Part shown: positions 1,695-61,827 of the stretch, one piece after another
Layout: every line of letters begins with the position of its first letter
Position numbering within the stretch: the first letter of the stretch is position 1
IMG/VR virus record: IMGVR_UViG_2806310659_000001
Location: 1-64,000 of that record
Strand: one strand, 5' to 3'
Length of the DNA: 64,000 nucleotides
Source: a virus
Taxonomy: Duplodnaviria; Caudoviricetes
The notes under the pieces: generated by a model
Told to the model about the DNA's origin: nothing
What the model saw: only the letters and a program-made list of their open reading frames with translations
Database searches by the model: none
Made by a program: the position numbers and the translations under genes

Positions 1695-2069
1695 GTGGCA
1701 ACAGAAGTAATTCACCGACTGGTCGATGACCTGGACGGCACTGCCGCGGAGGGGACGGTTGACTTCTCCTACAAGGGCACGGCCTACCAGATCGACCTGT
1801 CCACGGCGAACGACAAGAAGTTCGACAAGGCCATGGAGCAATGGATCTCCAAAGCCCGCAAGAAGGGCAGGGCGGCGACACGTCACCGCACCCGGGTCCG
1901 CTCCCCCCAGGCCAAGGCCGACAACGACGCCATCCGGGCGTGGGCCAAGAAGCAGGGACTACAAGTGTCCGACCGCGGCAAGATCCCGAAAGACGTGGTC
2001 GACAAATTCGAGACCGAGCACACCGACTCCGAGAAGGAGAAGTTGTTCTCCGAGGCCGGCGCGTCATGA
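1695..2069 (+). CDS. lsr2: Lsr2-like nucleoid-associated DNA-bridging protein
   Basis: N-terminal LVDDLDG...YQIDLS dimerisation motif; C-terminal IRAWAKKQGLQVSDRGKIP AT-hook-like motif. Confidence 0.93.
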   Translation: MATEVIHRLVDDLDGTAAEGTVDFSYKGTAYQIDLSTANDKKFDKAMEQWISKARKKGRAATRHRTRVRSPQAKADNDAIRAWAKKQGLQVSDRGKIPKDVVDKFETEHTDSEKEKLFSEAGAS

Positions 2070-8901: not shown

Positions 8902-10593
8902 CTAATTGCTTGGGGGGCTATACGGGAGACCGAGCTTCTGCCCGATCTCGGCAATGGCCTCGATGGGGGTGCGGCCGTTGAGCATGTCCCAGCGCAAAAG
9001 CAACTGGTCCCATACCTGACTGGTTTGGGTGGCCATGTCTGCCGGCTTGGGAATGGCGGGCGGATTCGACACGGGTACCTCCGGGGTGGGTTTCGGTTGG
9101 GGTGCGTCAGCCACTCCGAGCGCGACAGCGAGTGCATCGGGGCTGTAGCCGTCCGCGGAGTTCATGTCGCAATTGCCGAATGGACTGGCGCCCTCTGGAA
9201 GGCCGCCGCCGTAACCACCGCCATCGGTGTACTGGTGGGCGAACTTGCCCGGGAAGTCCGGGTTCGATCCATACGAGGCGACGATCAGTTGGTCTTCACG
9301 ACGGTTGGACCACATGCTGTTGAGGTCACCGGTGTTGCCGTATGCGACAACTCGCCGGCCATCTCCCAGCCATGACACCAATGCGTCGTCGGTTGCATTC
9401 AGCGCGTCCGAGAAGTCGCCAGGAGGATTGCCGCCGCGTTCGGCGTCGATCATCGAGACCATCTTTGGATGCGGGCCGCCTACGCCCTGGACCACTCGGC
9501 GGTGCGTGTCAACGCAGGTCTGCCAATTGGTGTGCCAGTAGAAGTAGACGAAGAAGCCCTTCAGCTTGCGGAAGACACCCTGGTCGTCAACCCAGCCCTC
9601 ATCGCACGCCTTGACGCACCAGGCGTAGTTCTGTGCGAACTTCTGGTCCCGGTAATCGCCGTCATTCGAGCGAATGGCAATCCACTCGTACTTGTAGGAA
9701 TCGTCGACCGGGACTTGGTGTTCTGACACATCGGCCCAGAGCGTGTCCTGTGGCGCTGCCGGCGCAGGTTCTGGAGCGGGCGGCGGCGCCGGCTGTGGGG
9801 CCGGCGCGACATTGGCGTAGCAGTAGCCCTTGGGCGGGATGAGTGTGGCCACCTGATCGAACGAGCACCAGTAGCCGAACGGAGTGAATCCGGGGTCGGC
9901 AATCCACACTGCGCGCTCGTCAGGGTCGTAGCCCATGCAGGAGACGTAGTGGAATACCGTTCCACCGCCATAACTCGGACTGACCGACCCCTTTACCCCA
10001 CGCGGGTAATTGGAGGGCGGAGCGACGAAATTAAAGACCAATCCGTAGCCGCCGTCGATCGACTGCGTGATGTGCGCCCAAAGCTGGTCCTTGTCGCTCT
10101 GCGTGGGCGGATCATTCGGCATGTAGACCGACTGGTAGTTCGCCTCGGGCAAGTACTGGTTAAGGACCGGGGTGATGTAGGAGATGTCGTTGGTGCCGTC
10201 GACCGTGGTGTGCTCATCGGAGATCAGATCGTTCTCCGACTTGATGACGCCGCGGCCATTCAGGACGACCTGAGTGGATGCCGGCCCACAGTCGTAGTAC
10301 CTCTCCTGGGCGACAATGCTGTGGTCGTATTCGAGCACCCTCTCGCTACCGCCCATGCCGGGGTGATCCGGAACCGGGTTGTCCGACAGGTCGTTGTCGA
10401 GCTGCTCGATGATCGGTTCGCCCCGCTGAAGGAACAGCAGGATCGCATTGAGGACCGAGATGGCCGTGGCGATGATTGCCGCCTTGTCGGGCGGGAGAAC
10501 CTTGACCAGTTCGGCCAGGCCCAATGACGAGATGCTGACAACGGTGCCAGCGATGACTGCCGCCTTATGCCAATAGGGCGTCAGTTTTACCAT
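8902..10593 (-). CDS. lysA: Lysin A: holin-like TM N-terminus, C39-like peptidase, GH25-like muramidase
   Basis: QERYYDCGPAS...FHYVSCMGYD...IADP peptidase; Pro/Ala linker; WADVSEHQ...MIDAE...HQYTD...CDMN muramidase. ATG at 10593 follows GAGGGG. Confidence 0.88.
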   Translation of the reverse strand: MVKLTPYWHKAAVIAGTVVSISSLGLAELVKVLPPDKAAIIATAISVLNAILLFLQRGEPIIEQLDNDLSDNPVPDHPGMGGSERVLEYDHSIVAQERYYDCGPASTQVVLNGRGVIKSENDLISDEHTTVDGTNDISYITPVLNQYLPEANYQSVYMPNDPPTQSDKDQLWAHITQSIDGGYGLVFNFVAPPSNYPRGVKGSVSPSYGGGTVFHYVSCMGYDPDERAVWIADPGFTPFGYWCSFDQVATLIPPKGYCYANVAPAPQPAPPPAPEPAPAAPQDTLWADVSEHQVPVDDSYKYEWIAIRSNDGDYRDQKFAQNYAWCVKACDEGWVDDQGVFRKLKGFFVYFYWHTNWQTCVDTHRRVVQGVGGPHPKMVSMIDAERGGNPPGDFSDALNATDDALVSWLGDGRRVVAYGNTGDLNSMWSNRREDQLIVASYGSNPDFPGKFAHQYTDGGGYGGGLPEGASPFGNCDMNSADGYSPDALAVALGVADAPQPKPTPEVPVSNPPAIPKPADMATQTSQVWDQLLLRWDMLNGRTPIEAIAEIGQKLGLPYSPPSN

Positions 10594-10609
10594 TAAGTTG
10601 TTTCCCCTC

Positions 10610-11560
10610 TTAGTGAGTGCCAACCAGCACGCCATCCTGGGCACGCCAATAGCTGAATCCGGGTCCGGTGAATGGGTTATTGGGAATGAAGTTGAATCCC
10701 GTGTACCGGTACCCAAGGCCGTGTTGAACGGCGATGCCGGATGCGGACATGACCGGCGTAGTGAAGTCGCCGTTGCGATAGACCAGCACCGTGTCCGTGA
10801 GCGAGTTGTAGACCACCGTCACGTTCTCGTTGGTGGTGGTGTTCCGGGTCACCGTCTGCACATTGGTGTAGGCGGTGGGGCCGGTGCCCTTGACGATGTG
10901 CCATCTGTTGTTGCCGGCGGTTGGGCTCATCTCAAAAGTGACACCGATGTAGGAAGTCATTCCCGAGTCGGAGCACAAAACGATGCCGTTCTGCTCGGCC
11001 GCGTTAGGCGTTCCGGACGAACCGAAGACCTTGCAACTGATTGTTACGTCGTCACCATTGAGCGGTGCGTAGAACAATGTCGCTGCCGGGTTTGGTAGCG
11101 CCACCAGGGACTTGTTATTCAAATCGCCGGCGTTCGGCAGGAGCTTGAGTGTGCCATTGATCCGAATCCAGCGCGGTCCGACATCCGTGCGTTGGAAGTC
11201 GTCCTGGAATAGCAGTGCCGTGTCGGAGATATCCGTGGGCGGCGCATCCGGGAATCGCGGCTCCTTGCGGATCGCGGTCCCATAGGACAGCGCTATCGGG
11301 TCGTAGCCGGCGAACTTGACGGTGAACTCGAATGCCGCGCCATGCGGGATATCATCAACGTTCGCCGCTGGCTCATTGAAGACGAAATCCTTGCCGTCCG
11401 GAACGGCGGTGAGTGTGGCGATGACCAACCCGACCGAGTCATAGAAGGTGAGCTTCGCTTGGGCGCCGGCCGGCCAATCGGTGTCGTCGTGAAATGTTGC
11501 CTGGAAACCCATGCCCTTTGTCAGAACAAGGGTGTCCATCTTCGGGTTGATCCCGATCAA
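10610..11560 (-). CDS. Minor tail protein
   Basis: Position at end of tail module; DTLVLTKG...F N-terminus and beta-rich C-terminal domain (FQDDFQR). Confidence 0.7.
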   Translation of the reverse strand: MIGINPKMDTLVLTKGMGFQATFHDDTDWPAGAQAKLTFYDSVGLVIATLTAVPDGKDFVFNEPAANVDDIPHGAAFEFTVKFAGYDPIALSYGTAIRKEPRFPDAPPTDISDTALLFQDDFQRTDVGPRWIRINGTLKLLPNAGDLNNKSLVALPNPAATLFYAPLNGDDVTISCKVFGSSGTPNAAEQNGIVLCSDSGMTSYIGVTFEMSPTAGNNRWHIVKGTGPTAYTNVQTVTRNTTTNENVTVVYNSLTDTVLVYRNGDFTTPVMSASGIAVQHGLGYRYTGFNFIPNNPFTGPGFSYWRAQDGVLVGTH

Positions 11561-47873: not shown

Positions 47874-48101
47874 TTAAGAGAAGATCGCTTTCCAGAGGCG
47901 CTTACCGATCGGATCGGCCCACCACGGGAGCGAGTTGAGGAGGTGCAATGCAACCCCTGCAATGACCACCCGGGTCAGGATTGGGTGGGTCAATAGCCAT
48001 TCGTCGACAACGACGGAAAGTAGTTGGTCCTCTTCGCACGAGAACTCGTAGGCGATGATGCCCGCGGCCATGATTGCCCAGGCCTGCTTGCCGGTGATCA
48101 C
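47874..48101 (-). CDS. Small membrane protein
   Basis: AW..MAAGIIAYE...LLS..VD...ALHLLN..P.WADP. Confidence 0.7.
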   Translation of the reverse strand: MITGKQAWAIMAAGIIAYEFSCEEDQLLSVVVDEWLLTHPILTRVVIAGVALHLLNSLPWWADPIGKRLWKAIFS

Positions 48102-48295
48102 GAGACCAGCCAAGGGCGCGGGGCTCCGAAGATCAGCTCCCAAAACTCAGGTTCCGGGAGGGCCGTGTCGTCCTTGCGGGAAGCCATGCATACGCGACGG
48201 TCCCTGGTCTTGTCGGGCCACTGCCGGCGCCAGTGCGAGCCCCCCATCCACGATGGGCGTCCAGCTCCGCAGTCGGGGCAGGTTTCGGCGAACAT
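48098..48295 (-). CDS. Small Cys-containing protein
   Basis: ATG after AGGGAG; CPDCG. Confidence 0.55.
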   Translation of the reverse strand: MFAETCPDCGAGRPSWMGGSHWRRQWPDKTRDRRVCMASRKDDTALPEPEFWELIFGAPRPWLVS

Positions 48296-48665: not shown

Positions 48666-49436
48666 CGGGCTGAGAATACACCCGTCCACAGTGACCTTTA
48701 CCGGATTATTGGTTCCCGGCTTTTCCACGTCATTCCTGAACGTAGTCACCACGCCCGGTCGGTTACGCCGACCACTCGTTACACCGAAAGCTACTCCGCG
48801 ACGTTTGTTTCACACTGGATTCGCGGGTCCAGCGCTGCACTACTTGTCTACGAACCACCGTCGCCTTGCGGGCTCGTGATGGCCCTGGTTCCGTAACGGC
48901 CAGGGATTAGAGGCGCTTTTGCTCCTCGGCGGGGGAAGAACTTTGGCTTGTTTCTGTTCTCAAAACAGGAAATGGTGAAATATAAGCAATTTCGTTCTAA
49001 CTAGAGACGTGCTTCCCCATGAAGGTCCGCACCCTTTTGAGGTACAGAATGCTTCACGCCTCTCGTGCTTCAGGCTGGCGACCTGTTTCGCACTCTACTC
49101 AGCCGTTCCCGAGCCGTCGCCCGTTACTAAGCGTTTTCATGGAACCCGCCCTTGCCCGCCAAGGCTTGGACTGAGACCCCCTCCGCACCACAAGGAGCTT
49201 GACCGATAGCCGTTTCTTCCCGCACGTACGGGTTGGTGGTCCCACTGGTTCACAGCCCTGGACCCTGGCGTATCTCGCCCCCTGGCAGCCCCCGAAGGAA
49301 CTGCTCAAGGATTGGATTGCATGGGGTACCCTCTCGGGCGGCAAGGTTGTCAGCCTCGCCTTTCAGCATCTTGCGATGCCTTATCCGCCATGCCGGAAAT
49401 GTGCCCGTTCAGTCGGTGGGCTAACCGATGCAATCC
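48666..49436 (-). ncRNA. GOLLD-like large non-coding RNA
   Basis: ~770 nt dense in GNRA/UUCG hairpins; motifs I recall from GOLLD (CUCAAAAGG, GUAACGAGUGG, terminal GUGUAUUCUCAGC); GGGGAAG/CUUCCCC long-range pairing. Confidence 0.8.
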
Positions 49437-49469
49437 TCACTATATGAACCGAAATCCTCGAATAGTGAA
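49437..49469 (-). promoter_or_regulatory. Putative promoter of the ncRNA cluster with overlapping inverted repeat
   Basis: TTCACT, 19 nt, TATAGT on the minus strand; inverted repeat TCACTAT (49437-49443) / ATAGTGA (49462-49468). Confidence 0.5.
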
Positions 49470-49633: not shown

Positions 49634-50002
49634 TTAGGTCTGCATCAGTTCGGTGAGCGATTCCCGCTCGCGCCTGACGCGCTCATACTCTTGCTCAACA
49701 TCCCTCGGCAGTGTTGGCCCCTGCGCGATGACGGGACGGCCCGACCAGACGAGGTTGTCTTTGTGGGGGTCCTTGCCGGCGCGGAACTTGACACGGTATC
49801 CGCGGCACATGGGATGGCCGTAGTAGGCGCGGGCCACAAGGTCGTGGACCATGCAGGTGGATTTACCGATGTCGACCTGGAGTGAGCCATTGGCAGCACG
49901 GCGCAGTTTCTTGAACCGGCGCCGGCGCTCGTCCCATATCCGGCCGTCTGGCGTTGCCCGGTAGCCGGCATAGCCGGGGATGGCGGCTAACTGCTCATCC
50001 AT
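49634..50002 (-). CDS. NUMOD4/HNH-like protein, probably degenerate
   Basis: IPGYAGY.AT.DGRI...VHDLVARAY.G...DNLVW. Confidence 0.65.
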   Translation of the reverse strand: MDEQLAAIPGYAGYRATPDGRIWDERRRRFKKLRRAANGSLQVDIGKSTCMVHDLVARAYYGHPMCRGYRVKFRAGKDPHKDNLVWSGRPVIAQGPTLPRDVEQEYERVRRERESLTELMQT

Positions 50003-52185: not shown

Positions 52186-52895
52186 GCTGCACTCTCCTGA
52201 AGGGCGGTTACATCTGCGAGGGTCAGACCGGTTTCGTATTTCCATTGGCGGTACTCGCGCAACTCCGCCGCCATCTTTCGTCGGTCCATCGTTACATGAC
52301 ACTTCCTACACATCGGCATGTAGAACTCGGGATAGAGCGAATACCGCATTAGTGAGCCAGAGCCCGACCCCTTACCAGGCCCCAATATCTCGGCCGGATC
52401 AGTCCCGTCATAAGCCCAGTCCTTAGCGTTTTCCCCGCACTCAATGCACCGGTAGCGGCTTGCAGGTCCCCATAATGTCCGAACCCTGACGTGCGCGGCG
52501 GTGAAGTCGCAAGGACTGGCCAGCGTATTGCGAATGGGCGCGTCAACGGAAAGCGACGTATCTCCGCGTGCGCGAGACCAATGCAATCGGCAATATCCGT
52601 GCGCCTTATGCTTTCGATCGCACCCCTCGATCCGGCATCCGCGATCAGGATCAAAGATCCTAAGCGGGCCGTCGATATCACACCCCTGGCGGAAGCGTTC
52701 GTAGTGGCCACGGCAGTAGCCCCTGACCGTGGACAGGCGGTCACACCCCTTGGCTGTGCACAGCTCGGGATAGTCGGGAACGCGATGTCGCTGGTTCATA
52801 TCAGCTCCGCGGCGCGCCCGCTGGTAATGAGCACTGCAATAGCCGAGCGATCGGACCTTGCGGTCGCACCAGTCCACTTTACAGATACTTGTCAC
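52182..52895 (-). CDS. Zn-finger-repeat HNH-like protein
   Basis: Three C-x4-C-x9-C-x2-H repeats, then CIECG...MCRKCH. Confidence 0.7.
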   Translation of the reverse strand: MTSICKVDWCDRKVRSLGYCSAHYQRARRGADMNQRHRVPDYPELCTAKGCDRLSTVRGYCRGHYERFRQGCDIDGPLRIFDPDRGCRIEGCDRKHKAHGYCRLHWSRARGDTSLSVDAPIRNTLASPCDFTAAHVRVRTLWGPASRYRCIECGENAKDWAYDGTDPAEILGPGKGSGSGSLMRYSLYPEFYMPMCRKCHVTMDRRKMAAELREYRQWKYETGLTLADVTALQESAA

Positions 52896-54214
52896 GCGAC
52901 CGATTCCATGTCCAGCTCGCCCCTGTCGAGCAGCTTCGTTTCGTGTTCGAGGAATACTTGTGACTTGGCCTTTAGCAAGACCGGAACCAGGCCCTCCTGA
53001 CGAATTACCACTCCCTCGTCGACCGTCTTGGGGTCGGATAGGGGAAGCACATCAGGATTGACCTCACCGTACAACTCGGCATAACTCCGGTCCATGAACG
53101 AGTCGACAATGTCGTCCGTGGTGTCACCGGTGGTGTCGTATTCCGGATCGAAGTCATGGATGAAACGGAACAATTCCGGTGTCCACTTCAGCCCGCGCTC
53201 CTGGCAAAACTGCTTAACGCCATCCCACGAGAGGTCGCTTAGGTGACCCTGTCGGTTGATGTGAGCGACGCGATAAACGTATAGTTCCGCTTCGTTCCGA
53301 GCCAAGTGATACGTGTAACCCCTTTGAAGAGGAGCACCGTCAGGCGTCCAGCCGATAAGCTCGCCATAGACAATGAATCCTTCCGGGATTAGGTTGGCAA
53401 CCCTCTTGCCGTATTCGGTCCAGAGGTCGAATTTGTAGAAATGCTCCTGGTTCGGGTTGTTCGGGTCCTTGATAACCTTTCGTGAGCCGAAAACCACGTC
53501 GTACTCCCACTCGGGGATGTTCACGCCGAGGCGCTTGAGCAGCTTCTCATACCACTTCAACTGGCGAAGGACCGGAACCCTCCCGCCACGCCAGGATGTC
53601 CCGTGGAGCTTCTGCGTGATGACCACTTCCCGGCCGGCGCGCAAGACGTGCCTGGAACGGAAGTAACTGTCAGTTTCGAGGTGCTCGGGAAAGACTTTCT
53701 TGTCCACGCGCTTAAACGCCCGCTCCACCTTCGACCTGGCGGGCTGGCCGGCCTTGCGGGGCAGCTCGTACTTCTTGCAGATCTCGTGGTCGCCGATCTT
53801 GTCGAACAGCACCACCGGGTGGCTTACGTCGGCCAGCTCGGCACGCAGCTTGTCGATGTCCAGGCCGGTGTAGGCCAGGGACTCCAGCGGCATGAGGAGT
53901 GCGTTGGAGCGGTGCCCGCGGAGTTTCAGCGCCTTGATGCGGCGGTTGTCCTCCAGGTAACCCGTCTCGCCCTCGTCCTTGTTCAGGTCGGCATGGCGGA
54001 ACAGGTTGTTCTGGTGGGCGTAGTCGTCGCTCAGTTGCGTTTCCGCGGTGAACAGCACGCGGAGTTCCCCGGCCTCAATCCCCCGCTGTGTGAGGGCCTG
54101 GTGACCGAGAATGGGGATGCCGACAAGGTTGTCCAGCCCGGGCAGGTCCACCGGGGCGGGAACACGGACGATGGTGGCCGCGTAGTTGACGTTGGCCGGC
54201 TGGTCGAATTTCAT
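52892..54214 (-). CDS. RNA ligase (Rnl2-like)
   Basis: TQKLHGTS motif I, VYGEL, EGVVIR, LKAKS; N-terminal LKLRGHRS. Confidence 0.85.
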   Translation of the reverse strand: MKFDQPANVNYAATIVRVPAPVDLPGLDNLVGIPILGHQALTQRGIEAGELRVLFTAETQLSDDYAHQNNLFRHADLNKDEGETGYLEDNRRIKALKLRGHRSNALLMPLESLAYTGLDIDKLRAELADVSHPVVLFDKIGDHEICKKYELPRKAGQPARSKVERAFKRVDKKVFPEHLETDSYFRSRHVLRAGREVVITQKLHGTSWRGGRVPVLRQLKWYEKLLKRLGVNIPEWEYDVVFGSRKVIKDPNNPNQEHFYKFDLWTEYGKRVANLIPEGFIVYGELIGWTPDGAPLQRGYTYHLARNEAELYVYRVAHINRQGHLSDLSWDGVKQFCQERGLKWTPELFRFIHDFDPEYDTTGDTTDDIVDSFMDRSYAELYGEVNPDVLPLSDPKTVDEGVVIRQEGLVPVLLKAKSQVFLEHETKLLDRGELDMESVA

Positions 54215-57374: not shown

Positions 57375-58808
57375 TCAGAGCAGGTTTTCGTTTATCTTTG
57401 GCTCCGATATTTGGGCCAGGAACCACGCCGTAGGAACGCTTCCGCCCTGTCCGCCACGGTGCCCGTCGACTTTCGTCAAGACCCCTCGCTTGACGAGCTT
57501 GTCGAGCTGCCGCTGCGCCTTCTTGCACTGCGCATCAGTGGGGCGGGGGGTGTCGTACAACTGCTTGGCAGCCTCCTTGGCGGTCAGCCCGTCCGGGCCG
57601 GCGCCGTTGACCGCTTTCGTGAAGTCGAACTTCACCACCTCCATCCGCCCCTCCTCGGGGAAGTAGTGGAGATGCCAGGGACCCACCTCGTTGGCGGGCT
57701 GCTTGACGTGGTGGAACCTCACCACCAGATCACCCGGGTCGCCGGTCAACTGAATGACCGAGCCGGCCCCAGAGGTCAGCCACGTCGAGCCGAACACGTC
57801 GTTGATCCCGACCGGTCCGTTCTGCGGGTTGGCCTTCCTGTTGTGGTGCAGCTCGCAGATCTGCACGCCGCGTGCCAGCAGTGCTTGTCTGGCCCGGTTG
57901 TAGGCCGCGGCCGTGGCGTCCTCGGACAGCCCCACCACCGCGTCCTTGAGCGAGTCCACGTACACCGTGCCGGCGCCAGCCTCCAGCGCCATCCTTGCCA
58001 GCAGGGATGGGTCCACTGCCAGGTCGGAGATGGGCGGACCGGGGCGGAACAGTAGCCGGCCCGTAACTCCTGCCATCTCCTCGGCATCGAACTGCCGTCT
58101 CATCGAGCGGCGGATCTGTCGTGGGCGGTCCATCGCCAGGTACAGGATGGGTCTCTCGGAGCAGGCGATAGGCAGACCGAGGACCGTGCTGTCGAGCCCG
58201 AGCTGTCCGCGGACGAGCATCCCGGCGAGGGTGGTCTTACCCAGCCCCATACCGCCGGCGATCATCAGTGCCTCGCCCTCGGCCCAGAGGATGTCATCGC
58301 CGTCGCCCCACACGATCACGCTGCGATCGTCGGCACCGAACATCCACTCCGCGCCGTCAACGGGAGGGAAGTTTCCCCAGACATCGATTGCTGGAGCGGA
58401 ATCGCCTTCCACTGGCCGCTGGGGACCTCCCCCGATAGATGACACCGGCGAGGGCGTAGCGGCGCGCTCAGGGACCATGCGGGCGCCGACCTTCGCATCG
58501 GCCCCGGCGAAGCCCGAACGAATGGTGGCCTCGATCTCATGGTCGTCCAGGCCGGCATTGCGGGCGGCTAGTGTGAGAGTGTCCTCGACGGTATGTTTGT
58601 CGATGGCCCCGGCGTTAATCAGGCCCCCCATATTGAACGCTGCTACGTTCAGGGTGTGATTGCGCACCCCTTCCGGGGCCACCTCCACATTGCGCGCCTC
58701 TAACTGGAGGGCTGCCGCGGCGTAGGCGTTGTTCGGGGCGACCGGGTTGGCGATCTTCCTGGGCTCGGGCTTGGGCTGTTCAACGCGCTGAAGGAAGCCG
58801 GTAGTCAA
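57375..58808 (-). CDS. RepA/AAA_25-type DNA helicase with N-terminal PriCT-like domain
   Basis: GVRNHTLNVAAF; GGMGLGKTT Walker A; VYVDSL; LHHNRK. Confidence 0.88.
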   Translation of the reverse strand: MTTGFLQRVEQPKPEPRKIANPVAPNNAYAAAALQLEARNVEVAPEGVRNHTLNVAAFNMGGLINAGAIDKHTVEDTLTLAARNAGLDDHEIEATIRSGFAGADAKVGARMVPERAATPSPVSSIGGGPQRPVEGDSAPAIDVWGNFPPVDGAEWMFGADDRSVIVWGDGDDILWAEGEALMIAGGMGLGKTTLAGMLVRGQLGLDSTVLGLPIACSERPILYLAMDRPRQIRRSMRRQFDAEEMAGVTGRLLFRPGPPISDLAVDPSLLARMALEAGAGTVYVDSLKDAVVGLSEDATAAAYNRARQALLARGVQICELHHNRKANPQNGPVGINDVFGSTWLTSGAGSVIQLTGDPGDLVVRFHHVKQPANEVGPWHLHYFPEEGRMEVVKFDFTKAVNGAGPDGLTAKEAAKQLYDTPRPTDAQCKKAQRQLDKLVKRGVLTKVDGHRGGQGGSVPTAWFLAQISEPKINENLL

Positions 58809-60297
58809 GTCCCTCCTCCAGTACGCGCTGCACGTCCTCGAATGTCTGCCAGCTCAGGAACTGGCCGTCCTGCCAGACGGGCTGGAGCAGGCTTCGTCGT
58901 TCCGCAGACTCGCCGGCCTCCTGAACCAGGACGAGGCCCCCGCCAAAGGCATTCGCCCGGCGTCCTACCGCGAGCCGGCCGGTAGCACTCGTCTTGGTGC
59001 CGTCATCGGTGATCGGGTCCTTCTTGAGGTTCACGCCCTCGCCGTCGACCTCCGCCCAGGTGGCTTTCATCGCCGAACCGAACGTGTCGCGGGTCTGGTA
59101 CTGGTAGCTGAACGAGCCCACGCCGAACACCACGTTGGTCGAGGCGTAGCACAGTTGCCGCATCCTCTCGGTGATCGAGCGGGCGCGGTCGAGCGTGATC
59201 GAGTCGCCGTAGATGGCGCCGACGTGCGAGTCCAGTTCGATGAAGCCTCGGGCGTTCTTGTGCCCGCCGAAGGTGTTGTAGAGCAGGTTCAGCACGCCCC
59301 ACCACTCGTGGGACATGTATGGCGCCTGCGGGTTACCACAGAGGATCTTCTCCGGGTCGCCCGAGTCGGGGCGGATCACCAGCTTGCCCTCACGTGTGAG
59401 GATCTTGTTCTTCAGCGCCGGCAGGTAGGTGGCCAGCACACGCCACAGGTCGAACGTGTCGGACACGATCGAGACCGTCCCCTTGGGGTACAGGTCCAGC
59501 AGACGGTTGATCGTCTCCAGCTCCCCCACGGTGGCGATTCCGGTGCACATGACCGAGTGCTCGGTGGCCGGGACCGACTGGGCGGAGTAGAACCCGCCGT
59601 AGTAGCGGTCGATCCAGTCCAGGGAGACCAGGGAGTCGGTGCCGAAGAATGACAGCAGGTGGCCGGCGCCCGACGCCGCGGCGGACTCGTGCGAAGACAT
59701 CCCCCGGTAGGAGAAGTCGTGGCACTGGTAGTTCACGGCCGAAGGGGCGGCGCCGGTCAGCTTGGCCGCCTCCTCCAGGATCTTGCGATACTCACGGGCG
59801 ATCGTCGCCGAGGTGGACGCCTGCCAGATGCCGGCCGACAGCCCGGTCTCGACGAAGTTTGTCAGCCAGAAGAACCGCGGGTCGGTGTTCTCCACCGTGA
59901 AGGACGGGATGCCGATCGGAACCGGCGTGCCCTCGGGGATCGAGCAGAACCGCAGGGGCAGGTACCCCAGCTTCCATAGCTCCCGAACGTGCTCCGAACC
60001 GATCGACTCGGCGGCCGGGATACCGAGCACCTGCGCGATGCGCCCCTCGTAGAGGTCGCACACCTCGTCCACATCCGACTCGAAGAACGGCTCCCACTCC
60101 TCCATCAGGTACTTGCGGAGGTAGGCCTGCAATCCGAAGTGGACCACGTGGTTGACGCCGGGTATGCGCGACTTGCGGTTGGTGTAGTTGGAGTAGACGC
60201 GGGTGACGTTGCCGCTCAGTTGGTATTGCCGAAGATGGTCCAGCTTGTAGGCGTCAGTGCGAAACAGGGGGGCAACTGGCTCGTAGAGCGTGTTCAC
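58780..60297 (-). CDS. Nicotinamide phosphoribosyltransferase-like protein (Namat/NadV family)
   Basis: TDAYKLDH, HDFSYRG, SVPATEHSVM, SIVSDTFD, VIRPDSGDP, IYGDSIT, TRDTFG.A.KAT. Confidence 0.93.
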   Translation of the reverse strand: MNTLYEPVAPLFRTDAYKLDHLRQYQLSGNVTRVYSNYTNRKSRIPGVNHVVHFGLQAYLRKYLMEEWEPFFESDVDEVCDLYEGRIAQVLGIPAAESIGSEHVRELWKLGYLPLRFCSIPEGTPVPIGIPSFTVENTDPRFFWLTNFVETGLSAGIWQASTSATIAREYRKILEEAAKLTGAAPSAVNYQCHDFSYRGMSSHESAAASGAGHLLSFFGTDSLVSLDWIDRYYGGFYSAQSVPATEHSVMCTGIATVGELETINRLLDLYPKGTVSIVSDTFDLWRVLATYLPALKNKILTREGKLVIRPDSGDPEKILCGNPQAPYMSHEWWGVLNLLYNTFGGHKNARGFIELDSHVGAIYGDSITLDRARSITERMRQLCYASTNVVFGVGSFSYQYQTRDTFGSAMKATWAEVDGEGVNLKKDPITDDGTKTSATGRLAVGRRANAFGGGLVLVQEAGESAERRSLLQPVWQDGQFLSWQTFEDVQRVLEEGLDYRLPSAR

Positions 60298-61141
60298 TGA
60301 AGTCCTTCACGTGTTGAAGCATGTACGTTTCGGTCGGCACGATCACCGTGGCCACGCCCACCCTGTTGTGCCCGGGGTGGGAGTCGGTGGTGTAGATGTG
60401 CCGGTAGTGCTCGCGCAGGTCATAGGCGCGACCGGAAAAGATCCCGTGCGTCACCCATAGGCCGAGCTGGTCGCGATGCAGGCCGGTCTCTTTTGCCAGG
60501 CCCATGAACGTCCCGCCGCCGTCGCAGATGTCGTCGACCACCAGGTAGCGACCGTGCCGCGGGAGGTGGTCTTTCATCTCGATGCCGAGGATCTTCCCGG
60601 TATCGAACTCGCGGACCTTCTCCGCGCGGTAGAAATCGAGCCCCAGCTCGTGGGCCGCCGTGTAGGCGCGCTGAGCGGCACCCTTGTCAGGTGAGATCAC
60701 ACCGTCGTACCGCTCCCGGTGATCGGCGTCCTGTAGCGCTCGTAGCAGCAGGGGGAACGGATCTAGCTGCGTCAGGTTTCGCAGGTAGCGACCAATCATC
60801 GGCGAGTGTGCATCGATGCCGATAACCTGCTGCGGGTTCATGGAGTTGATCAGCTCCGCATACACTCTGGCGCCTTCCGGCTCGCCGCGGTCAGCCCGGG
60901 CGGCCGGCAAGTAGGGCAGCATCAGAACGAACGGCATCTGCCGCTGGTGGGCGACGTTGGCCCACAGTGCCGCCTTGACGAGATCATCGGCACTTGCCCC
61001 GCGGACATCGGCCACCCACACTGCCGCGGCTCCCACGCTCGGCAGGTCGCGCAGATGGTGCTCGCCGCCAGGGAAGGTGAACGAATCGCCCACACCTTTG
61101 AGGTAGCCGTTGGGGGTGTGTAAGCGGAGGTGGACGGTCAT
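60254..61141 (-). CDS. Ribose-phosphate pyrophosphokinase-like protein (Adps/Prs family)
   Basis: FPGGE, PYLPAARADR, DAHS, SPDKGA, VVDDICDGGGTF, VTHGIFS. Confidence 0.92.
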   Translation of the reverse strand: MTVHLRLHTPNGYLKGVGDSFTFPGGEHHLRDLPSVGAAAVWVADVRGASADDLVKAALWANVAHQRQMPFVLMLPYLPAARADRGEPEGARVYAELINSMNPQQVIGIDAHSPMIGRYLRNLTQLDPFPLLLRALQDADHRERYDGVISPDKGAAQRAYTAAHELGLDFYRAEKVREFDTGKILGIEMKDHLPRHGRYLVVDDICDGGGTFMGLAKETGLHRDQLGLWVTHGIFSGRAYDLREHYRHIYTTDSHPGHNRVGVATVIVPTETYMLQHVKDFSEHALRASCPPVSH

Positions 61142-61827
61142 GCGGACTTCCTGATCTCGGGTGAGGGTTGGATGAGCCACGAGTAACGCCGATCGCCGAT
61201 CGCCGATGGCGGGGCGCACACGTAACCGCCGGCGCCGCGGTAGTCGATGCCCGGCTTAACACCCGCGCGGTTGCCGTCGCCCGTGGGCGAGACGTAGTAA
61301 TGAGTCCCTCTTGGGGTGTCCACCTTGCCGTGGACATCTGGCAATGCATCGGGTCCAAGTTGGGCCAGTGATGCCACCCCGGTCGGTCCGTCGATGTCGA
61401 TCACGTCGAACATCACTCCCGTGGCCAGACCGATGTTGGAGTCGGGCATATCGGTCCACCATCTACGGACCTGGTCTGGGTCCAATGTTGCGTCCTTGAA
61501 ACCGCGGGTGTGCGGGTAGGGCTTCTTGCCATCACCGAGGAAGTCGGGCCGCCTCGGATCGGTGTAGCCAACGGGTGCGAGCGGGAAGACCGGCCAGCCC
61601 TGTTTGGCGTACCAGAGGGCGGACGGACCCAGCTTGGCGGGACGGTCGTGCTTGTCGATCTCCGCCTGGAGTCGATTAGCCTCGGTTACGTCGTCACGCT
61701 GAGCGGCGTCACACCACTGCTGAGTTAGGGTGAACACCTCCGTGGGCTTGCACGTCGGGTGAGACGTTTGGCCCACGAAGGTGACCTCCATGACGCCGGC
61801 GCAGTCCGAACAGGTCGAGTAGAACAT
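61138..61827 (-). CDS. Bifunctional primase/polymerase (Prim-Pol) domain protein
   Basis: WPVFPL...GFKDAT.D...WW...NIGLATG...VIDID...TPRGTHYY...DYRG.GGYV.APPS. Confidence 0.9.
   Translation of the reverse strand: MFYSTCSDCAGVMEVTFVGQTSHPTCKPTEVFTLTQQWCDAAQRDDVTEANRLQAEIDKHDRPAKLGPSALWYAKQGWPVFPLAPVGYTDPRRPDFLGDGKKPYPHTRGFKDATLDPDQVRRWWTDMPDSNIGLATGVMFDVIDIDGPTGVASLAQLGPDALPDVHGKVDTPRGTHYYVSPTGDGNRAGVKPGIDYRGAGGYVCAPPSAIGDRRYSWLIQPSPEIRKSA

Follow-up and report, generated by a model that had tools for sequence, protein, structure and literature searches.

Does the DNA between positions 48,667 and 49,436 encode a genuine and intact member of the GOLLD family of giant RNAs, and what could such an RNA do in a phage devoid of tRNA genes? 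The question goes back to a first-pass annotation of the window, by which we mean the whole 64 kb stretch of DNA analysed here (bases 1-64000 of a 77,141-base contig, C44). That annotation had proposed a GOLLD-like giant RNA in a mycobacterial prophage, and had indicated the Rfam covariance model as the means of checking it. When the whole 64 kb window was scanned against Rfam at the curated thresholds, GOLLD was the sole family matched. Specifically, the GOLLD model RF02032 matches positions 49064-48667 of the minus strand with 215.6 bits (E 1.3e-59), compared to a curated cut-off of 150 bits, and the match is untruncated, spanning model positions 1-416 of 416. The proposal is therefore borne out by a significant, full-model match. 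A single GOLLD is found in the whole 5.0 Mb genome. Seven phage GOLLD copies scored in the same way gave 182.5-216.4 bits, with one of the seven above the window copy, which is therefore as good as those of free-living phages. The 770-nt RNA folds with a minimum free energy (MFE) of -312.6 kcal/mol (z -4.55), a value reached by none of 20 shuffles.

All together, these data indicate that the stretch encodes a genuine GOLLD RNA, belonging to an already known family, on the minus strand of a Mycobacterium prophage. More fully, we read the locus, with a probability of about 0.9, as an intact GOLLD gene of ~736-770 nt on the minus strand of a ~72 kb temperate siphovirus-type Mycobacterium prophage. 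Table 1 reports the features on which the following description is based.

Table 1. Features of the GOLLD RNA and of its surroundings (positions refer to the 64 kb window unless a contig is named).
Feature	Position	Strand	Basis or remark
Proposed whole GOLLD RNA	48667..49436	-	770 nt if the start is the 5' end given in the first-pass annotation
Part conserved with relatives	49402-48667	-	736 nt; in alignments A1 and A2 conservation begins near 49402
9-bp 5' closing helix GGAUUGCAU/AUGCAAUCC	49436-49428 with 49322-49314	-	Present in the MFE fold
Conserved 5' domain, ~340 nt	49065..49402	-	Covariation on A2
Hairpin with loop GCAUGG (49393-49388)	49396-49385	-	5' domain
Hairpin GGCAUC-GCAA-GAUGCU	49380-49365	-	Named in the first-pass annotation
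Helix	49360-49354 with 49346-49340	-	5' domain
Hairpin GCCC-GAGA-GGGU	49339-49328	-	Named in the first-pass annotation
CCAUGC, near-invariant	49324-49319	-	Complementary to the near-invariant loop GCAUGG
Hairpin GCAGUUCC-UUCG-GGGGCUGC	49304-49285	-	Named in the first-pass annotation; more helices follow
Long hairpin, loop UCAAAAG	49003..49064	-	Rfam alignment, model positions 1-62; includes GGGGAAG
Helix GGGGAAG/CUUCCCC closing the linker	49018-49012 with 48938-48932	-	Conserved
AU-rich variable linker, 63 nt	48941..49003	-	tRNA-free
Putative relic anticodon stem-loop CUGUUUUGAGAACAGAA	48968-48952	-	Match to an embedded tRNA-Ser(UGA)
Pseudoknot CGCCGAGG with UUUCGGUG	48931-48924 with 48789-48782	-	Rfam consensus brackets
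Hairpin GCGCUGGA-CCCGCGAA-UCCAGUGU	48835-48812	-	Loop 48827-48820, palindrome CGCG 48825-48822
Hairpin GGUCGG-CGUAA-CCGACC	48773-48757	-	Agrees with the Rfam consensus hairpin GgUuggccUAAccaAcC
3' terminal hairpin GGGUGUAUUCUCAGCCC	48683-48667	-	Last Rfam model element, positions 400-416
TATAGT, possible -10 box	49439..49444	-	Read from the sequence; putative
TTCACT, 19 nt upstream of TATAGT	49469-49464	-	Read from the sequence
Two G+C-rich hairpins, ~280 nt downstream of the RNA	48388-48362, 48360-48328	-	Read from the sequence
HNH endonuclease gene, just upstream of the RNA	49634..50002	-	phrog_959, E 1.8e-12
Likely small gene, 65 aa, CPDC motif, AGGGAG ahead	48098..48295	-	Translation; first coding sequence downstream
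RNA ligase gene	52892-54214	-	PF09414; phrog_968, E 1.3e-117
Polynucleotide kinase-phosphatase (PNKP) gene	Contig C44, 65441-66352	-	PF25109, E 2.2e-46, plus AAA_33

Of the 5' half, the Rfam model includes just the final hairpin, to which it adds the linker and the 3' domain. The ~340-370 nt upstream of the Rfam match constitute a 5' domain common to 26 distinct relatives and found in GOLLD RNAs of mycobacteriophages, of Gordonia and of two metagenome-assembled genomes (MAGs). On A2, the alignment of this domain with 27 distinct sequences including the window, we scored 47 pairs, corresponding to 41 nested pairs and a 6-bp loop pairing added by hand. Over these pairs 96.7% of the cells are paired, compared to 82.0% in shuffles, compensatory changes occur in 26 of the 47, and none of 500 shuffles reaches any of the five covariation measures. 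As a control, sliding the partners by 1-3 columns left 35-43% paired. The hairpins predicted by RNAalifold on A2 include three of those named in the first-pass annotation, and these three covary across the 27 sequences. The window itself forms 46 of the 47 consensus pairs; the differences from its closest relative (L021) amount to 6 compensatory changes and 5 one-sided ones, and 2 pairs are unpaired in either sequence.

All the helices and hairpins that the first-pass annotation had named were found on the minus strand at the coordinates it gave them. As GOLLD motifs, the hairpins and the long-range helix were confirmed, whereas the 9-bp helix said to close the 5' domain, though it can be formed in the window, is not a motif of the family. 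Nine base pairs are reached by 7 of 300 shuffles of the window, and in 23 relatives no counterpart of this helix stands out from their own shuffles. In addition, its 3' strand overlaps CCAUGC, whose conserved partner is the loop GCAUGG, a pairing that across the 27 sequences shows four U-G and one G-U wobbles, one U-A compensatory change and one mismatch. Because of both its absence above shuffles in the relatives and this overlap, the closing helix is best regarded as a lineage-specific feature or a product of chance. The two pairings are mutually exclusive, which places the 5' end of the RNA between 49436 and 49402.

Around this boundary, the TATAGT hexamer would put the transcript start near 49436-49431. 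A consensus scan for promoters and terminators gave nothing ahead of the RNA or immediately after it, and no U-tract terminator; its one promoter-like match falls inside the RNA. In Bongo, a tRNA-Asn ends a few bases ahead of the conserved 5' start. In Rey and Estes (L007 1309-1383 and L008 1426-1500; alignment columns 170-230) the stretch preceding the start resembles a tRNA 5' half, GUAGCUCAGUC.GG.AGAGCG, and ARAGORN called no tRNA at either stretch. On the other side of the RNA, the two G+C-rich hairpins could serve as terminators or as leader structures for the gene that follows; a further structured RNA in the 523 nt downstream was considered and rejected, since the fold is no better than shuffles (z +0.42).

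Turning to the part covered by Rfam, the long-range GGGGAAG/CUUCCCC helix exists as the first-pass annotation had described it, and it is conserved, with at least 7 bp in 25 of the 25 sequences with letters there and in 7 sequence versions, among them GGAAGAG/CUCUUCC and GGUGGAG/CUCCACC. The AU-rich linker was likewise located, at about 49003-48941, and the 3' end singled out in the annotation (GGGUGUAUUCUCAGCCC) proved to be the final element of the Rfam model. The pseudoknot comprises 8 bp in the window, 5 of them Watson-Crick, and at least 6 bp in 24 of 25 sequences; its versions covary, as in CGACGAC/GUCGUCG and GGCUCGGUGU/GCAUCGAGCC. A similar behaviour was observed for the palindromic loop: 23 of the 25 sequences carry a palindrome (GGCC in 21, CGCG in the window only, UAGCUA in one) and two carry none, and the changes in both pseudoknot and loop preserve pairing. 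In conclusion, the 3' domain is that of a GOLLD family member, with a covarying linker-closing helix, a retained pseudoknot and a self-complementary loop.

Most relatives in the clade carry a tRNA or a tRNA-like element in the linker. In the window linker no tRNA was found by ARAGORN, nor by Rfam at E up to 10. The tRNA-Ser(UGA) embedded in one relative (L018) has an anticodon arm that agrees with the segment 48968-48952 in 16 of 17 positions, a match equalled by none of 500 shuffles; against the anticodon arm in Estes (L008) the segment is identical in 13 of 15, with 2 of 500 shuffles doing as well. For six other embedded tRNAs the matches were weaker, 36 to 408 of 500 shuffles reaching the same score. 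These comparisons suggest that, of the tRNA which relatives have embedded here, the window linker retains just a relic anticodon arm, with the D and T arms gone. In Nanosmite, nearly the entire linker has been lost.

The region is also covered by open reading frames of 51-103 aa on both strands, similar to ORFs recorded as hypothetical proteins in related phage records, so that a protein-coding region with an incidental match to the RNA model had to be considered. We give this reading practically no credit. Nine ORFs at the locus (8 overlapping the RNA and 1 just downstream) show no match to any Pfam or PHROG family, and the sole ORF passing the third-position GC filter has a second-position GC of 0.62, which is atypical. 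Moreover, the substitution pattern is one of base-pair covariation, and the Rfam match has an E of 1.3e-59. The remark in the first-pass annotation that gene callers would fill the region with spurious ORFs thus holds, and in relatives the same place carries 'hypothetical protein' or odd tRNA calls. Among the 30 GenBank phage records listed (of 32 matching), the GOLLD stretch is annotated as 'hypothetical protein', tRNA or tRNA-OTHER or is left unannotated, and none of these 30 has an ncRNA feature over it.

The immediate flanks of the RNA share nothing with the loci of relatives beyond three matches of 16-33 nt (E 0.12-0.57), and no tRNA relic was detected by Rfam at E up to 10 between 47600 and 50100. 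A conserved HNH-GOLLD module was rejected, the upstream HNH gene being unlike the HNH beside GOLLD in Nanosmite and prophi86-1. The product of the 65-aa CPDC-motif gene (48098..48295) matched no Pfam or PHROG family.

As regards the carrier, the mycobacterial prophage setting put forward in the first-pass annotation was substantiated. The host genome contains 31 PPE and 10 PE matches, which we take as marking it as Mycobacterium, and capsid, portal, tape measure, lysin and serine integrase genes surround the RNA. The carrier is a ~72 kb siphovirus-type prophage with a GC content of ~61% in the window, compared to 67.2% for the genome. Its contig encodes capsid, portal, tape measure, lysin A and a cutinase-type lysin B, together with a DnaQ-like exonuclease, a helicase, NAMPT, PRPP synthetase and several HNH endonucleases, and the serine integrase gene maps to the contig end. 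The closest capsids, at 51.8% aa, are those of several mycobacteriophages; when 24 kb of the contig were searched at the DNA level, no phage record exceeded 5% coverage. Near the left end of the contig, a gene for an Lsr2-type nucleoid protein with both Pfam domains (1695-2069, plus strand) lies beside a DUF732 gene. Adjoining genes for nicotinamide phosphoribosyltransferase and ribose-phosphate pyrophosphokinase (58780-61219, minus strand) match phrog_448 (E 2.4e-176) and phrog_619 (E 6.4e-72), respectively; NAD-salvage gene pairs of this kind may help phages to counter NAD-depleting defence.

Neighbouring tRNA genes, a frequent but not a defining companion of GOLLD, are absent for the window copy. 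No tRNA gene was found in the 64 kb window by Rfam or ARAGORN, nor on the 77 kb contig by ARAGORN, which called 40 tRNA/tmRNA genes in the genome as a whole. An RNA ligase and a PNKP are encoded in this phage without tRNA genes; in T4, such a pair of enzymes repairs cut tRNAs. The five 19 kb loci of phages with the closest RNA ligase (36-53% aa) contain 0-5 tRNAs (1-5 in four of the five) and no GOLLD. Three of the viral contigs examined (L041-L043, 75-77 kb) encode an RNA ligase with 50-53% aa and a NAMPT with 58-68% aa identity to those of the window phage; 1-5 tRNAs follow the ligase gene at 4-8 kb further downstream, and GOLLD is absent from the 19 kb. The idea that GOLLD replaced a tRNA cluster at a syntenic site was rejected, because gene order differs among the ligase-related phages, and therefore no site equivalence can be claimed.

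We then compared the locus with its relatives. A blastn search of phage records gave 32 matches, all to Mycobacterium phages, with 60-80% identity from ~49402 to 48668. A 40-letter pattern from the conserved start retrieved 10 loci from species genomes and another 13 from viral contigs; these pattern loci, together with other loci, make up the 27 distinct sequences including the window. Over the RNA, the identity of the relatives to the window is 46-73%. ARAGORN called 8-21 tRNA/tmRNA genes in 17 loci of mycobacteriophage type, abscessus-prophage type and related kinds (including L027, an unassigned metagenome viral contig). The count is 5 in L017 and drops to 0-1 in eight loci of Gordonia or MAG type. 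Where relatives are annotated, an RtcB ligase, a peptidyl-tRNA hydrolase and a tmRNA lie beside the tRNA arrays.

Within the same genus, RF02032 gave no hit in 150 other genomes under stricter filters, and in the family it gave one in 150, under the cut-off. When the genus was searched at the DNA level, 3 of 399 other genomes were positive (one genome was not scored). One genome (G538) carries a 188.2-bit GOLLD inside 32 tRNAs. Another (G429; L047, C1:51000-70999) contains two GOLLD fragments of 77.1 and 66.6 bits among 28 tRNAs; they lie 1.3 kb apart, the 77.1-bit one matching the model end to end and the 66.6-bit one model positions 299-415, which looks like a broken or interrupted copy. A third genome (G388; L046, C38:1-20000) has a 185.1-bit GOLLD at 10227-10660, among P450, AraC, aldo-keto reductase and cupin genes; its 20 kb locus contains no tRNA, and none of the 19 ORFs scanned there is a phage gene. 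A tRNA-free GOLLD is therefore not unique to the window, though the window copy is the only one seen inside a phage in this survey.

GOLLD-like RNAs of 133.9-144.5 bits, just below the cut-off of 150 and with the covarying 5' domain, are present in Gordonia species and one Actinomycetes MAG. The copies are full at L005/L015, L011, L012, L014 and L020; L016 has an internal deletion (75.8 bits) and L019 is cut by the locus end. They lie outside prophages among chromosomal neighbours (Fur with catalase-peroxidase, an MFS transporter, a sigma factor, an M24 peptidase) and without a tRNA array. A tRNA-like element, where found, is embedded in the linker (five of these loci plus L013); L011 and L016 have none.

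The lack of tRNA genes raises the question of whether the window copy still functions. A decaying, non-functional remnant in a phage lineage that lost its tRNA array would account for a 77 kb contig without any tRNA gene and for a linker that keeps just a 17-nt relic of an embedded tRNA, features which could mark a module on its way out. Decayed copies do exist, as the G429 fragments and the L016 deletion demonstrate. Nonetheless, we hold this explanation to be very unlikely: the score of 215.6 bits is on a par with those of free-living phage copies, 46 of the 47 pairs of the 5' domain form, the differences from L021 are mostly compensatory or wobble, and both the pseudoknot and the loop palindrome have changed with pairing kept. 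In addition, Nanosmite and Bongo are also without an embedded tRNA, and around the 185.1-bit copy of G388 no tRNA gene lies in 20 kb, so that tRNA neighbours are not a requirement.

If the gene is intact, as we conclude, a second possibility concerns its cargo, namely that the cage holds or releases tRNA, a role already proposed for members whose linker contains a tRNA, either by capturing host tRNAs in trans or by offering the relic anticodon arm as bait to anticodon-cutting nucleases. The linker faces the cage interior, where tRNAs sit in many members (PMC12286853, PMC12990946). Most clade relatives keep a tRNA or tRNA-like element in the linker, the sole leftover in the window is an apparent anticodon arm with 16 of 17 positions as in L018, and the phage carries tRNA-repair-type enzymes. 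On the other hand, selection on the relic cannot be read from one sequence, since a partial deletion would leave the same picture, and the Nanosmite linker lost nearly everything; we know of no experimental link between GOLLD and any nuclease. This explanation thus appears very unlikely. What does follow from the absence of tRNA in both linker and phage is that storage of its own covalently linked tRNA is not the whole function of the RNA.

As to how an intact GOLLD RNA would work, published structures offer a framework. The GOLLD cage was described in 2025 from cryo-EM of multimers (PMC12286853), and its architecture is also treated in PMC12990946. Kretsch et al., who collected 806 non-redundant GOLLD sequences, report that the J13/15 kissing loop, earlier found by covariation, is an intermolecular bridge, and that self-pairing loops join two half-shells, one of them switching between palindromic cores (PMC12286853). 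By position, we infer that the pseudoknot and the palindromic loop of the window could correspond to these published chain-to-chain bridges, the loop being the counterpart of the L21 loops. By analogy with the two solved GOLLD RNAs, the transcript would fold into a 5' 'cap' and a 3' 'ring' domain, and 10 to 14 copies, held together by kissing loops and A-minor contacts, would build a hollow cage that encloses the linker; the bridges from chain to chain would be formed by the pseudoknot and the palindromic loop. Published work on other members suggests that the RNA would be made mainly in lytic growth.

Regarding its role, it is possible, but far from assured, that the cage acts in trans on the host translation apparatus (tRNAs or ribosomes), sustaining translation under host attack, a guess that draws solely on the gene neighbourhood (the RNA ligase and PNKP in the prophage). 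A more elaborate version, to which we attach quite a low likelihood, would see GOLLD as a self-sufficient module without a tRNA cargo of its own. In it, the embedded tRNA would have been reduced to its anticodon arm, and a cage of 10-14 chains, each presenting one such arm, would make a multivalent decoy for anticodon nucleases of the host, alongside the RNA ligase and the kinase-phosphatase that sustain translation in infection.

For an RNA class with a striking solved structure, natural variants without a usual companion provide cheap clues to function. An intact copy in a tRNA-free phage, together with the non-phage, tRNA-free copy of G388, argues that the cage does more than package tRNAs encoded alongside it. 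A phage setting free of tRNA genes, a putative remnant of an anticodon arm and a loop palindrome of its own give functional clues of modest yet practical value, and a compact actinobacterial construct of 736-770 nt with its own kissing-loop palindrome suits experiments on assembly and specificity. The comparison also exposes an annotation gap: across the 30 listed mycobacteriophage records (of 32 matching), GOLLD either has no annotation or bears a wrong one, protein or tRNA, and the Gordonia copies lie just under the Rfam cut-off.

Both the RNA class and the host group were known before, and the window copy adds a member. GOLLD in mycobacteria has been known since publications of 2019-2020. 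Morgado et al. 2020 reportedly described it in mycobacterial tRNA arrays, and may already list tRNA-less copies. Behra et al. 2019 found it in a cluster of 32 tRNAs of Mycobacterium aubagnense; the RNA contained a pseudo-tRNA and was weakly expressed on northern blots (PMC6582537). Mycobacterial GOLLD has also been described as acquired by horizontal transfer and located together with tRNA clusters and an HNH gene (PMC9569102), and Weinberg et al. 2017 place GOLLD in prophages and near tRNAs often, though not in every case (PMC5737381). A literature search for GOLLD with mycobacteriophage returned no relevant paper.

Among known systems, ROOL is likewise a large RNA of phages and prophages that often occurs close to tRNAs and builds a cage made of RNA only (PMC12286853; PMC5737381), but its sequence and fold are unrelated and the window has no ROOL match. 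The GOLLD RNAs of Mclasvirinae phages (Bongo, Rey, Nanosmite, Estes) and of M. abscessus prophages (prophi86-1, prophiGD54-2) are 63-73% identical to the window copy over the whole RNA, and have in common with it the 5' and 3' domains, the linker-closing helix and the pseudoknot. Those RNAs lie in arrays of 8-21 tRNA/tmRNA genes near RtcB and peptidyl-tRNA hydrolase, of which the window contig has none; their carriers are unrelated to the window phage at the DNA level, with nothing shared in the flanks, and their loop palindrome is GGCC, compared to CGCG in the window. The solved GOLLD members are env-38, a 14-mer cage, and that of Streptococcus agalactiae, a 12-mer; the window copy, a putative cage former, has no nearby tRNA. 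With respect to the Rfam family, the 5' domain of the window is of an actinobacterial type lying outside the model, and a single hairpin with a palindromic loop occupies the place of two consensus hairpins. The order of elements is nevertheless the same (long hairpin, variable linker, pseudoknot, GNRA hairpins and terminal UCUCA hairpin), and the window copy has in common with the GOLLD family its two-domain layout, its length of 736-770 nt and its location in a prophage.
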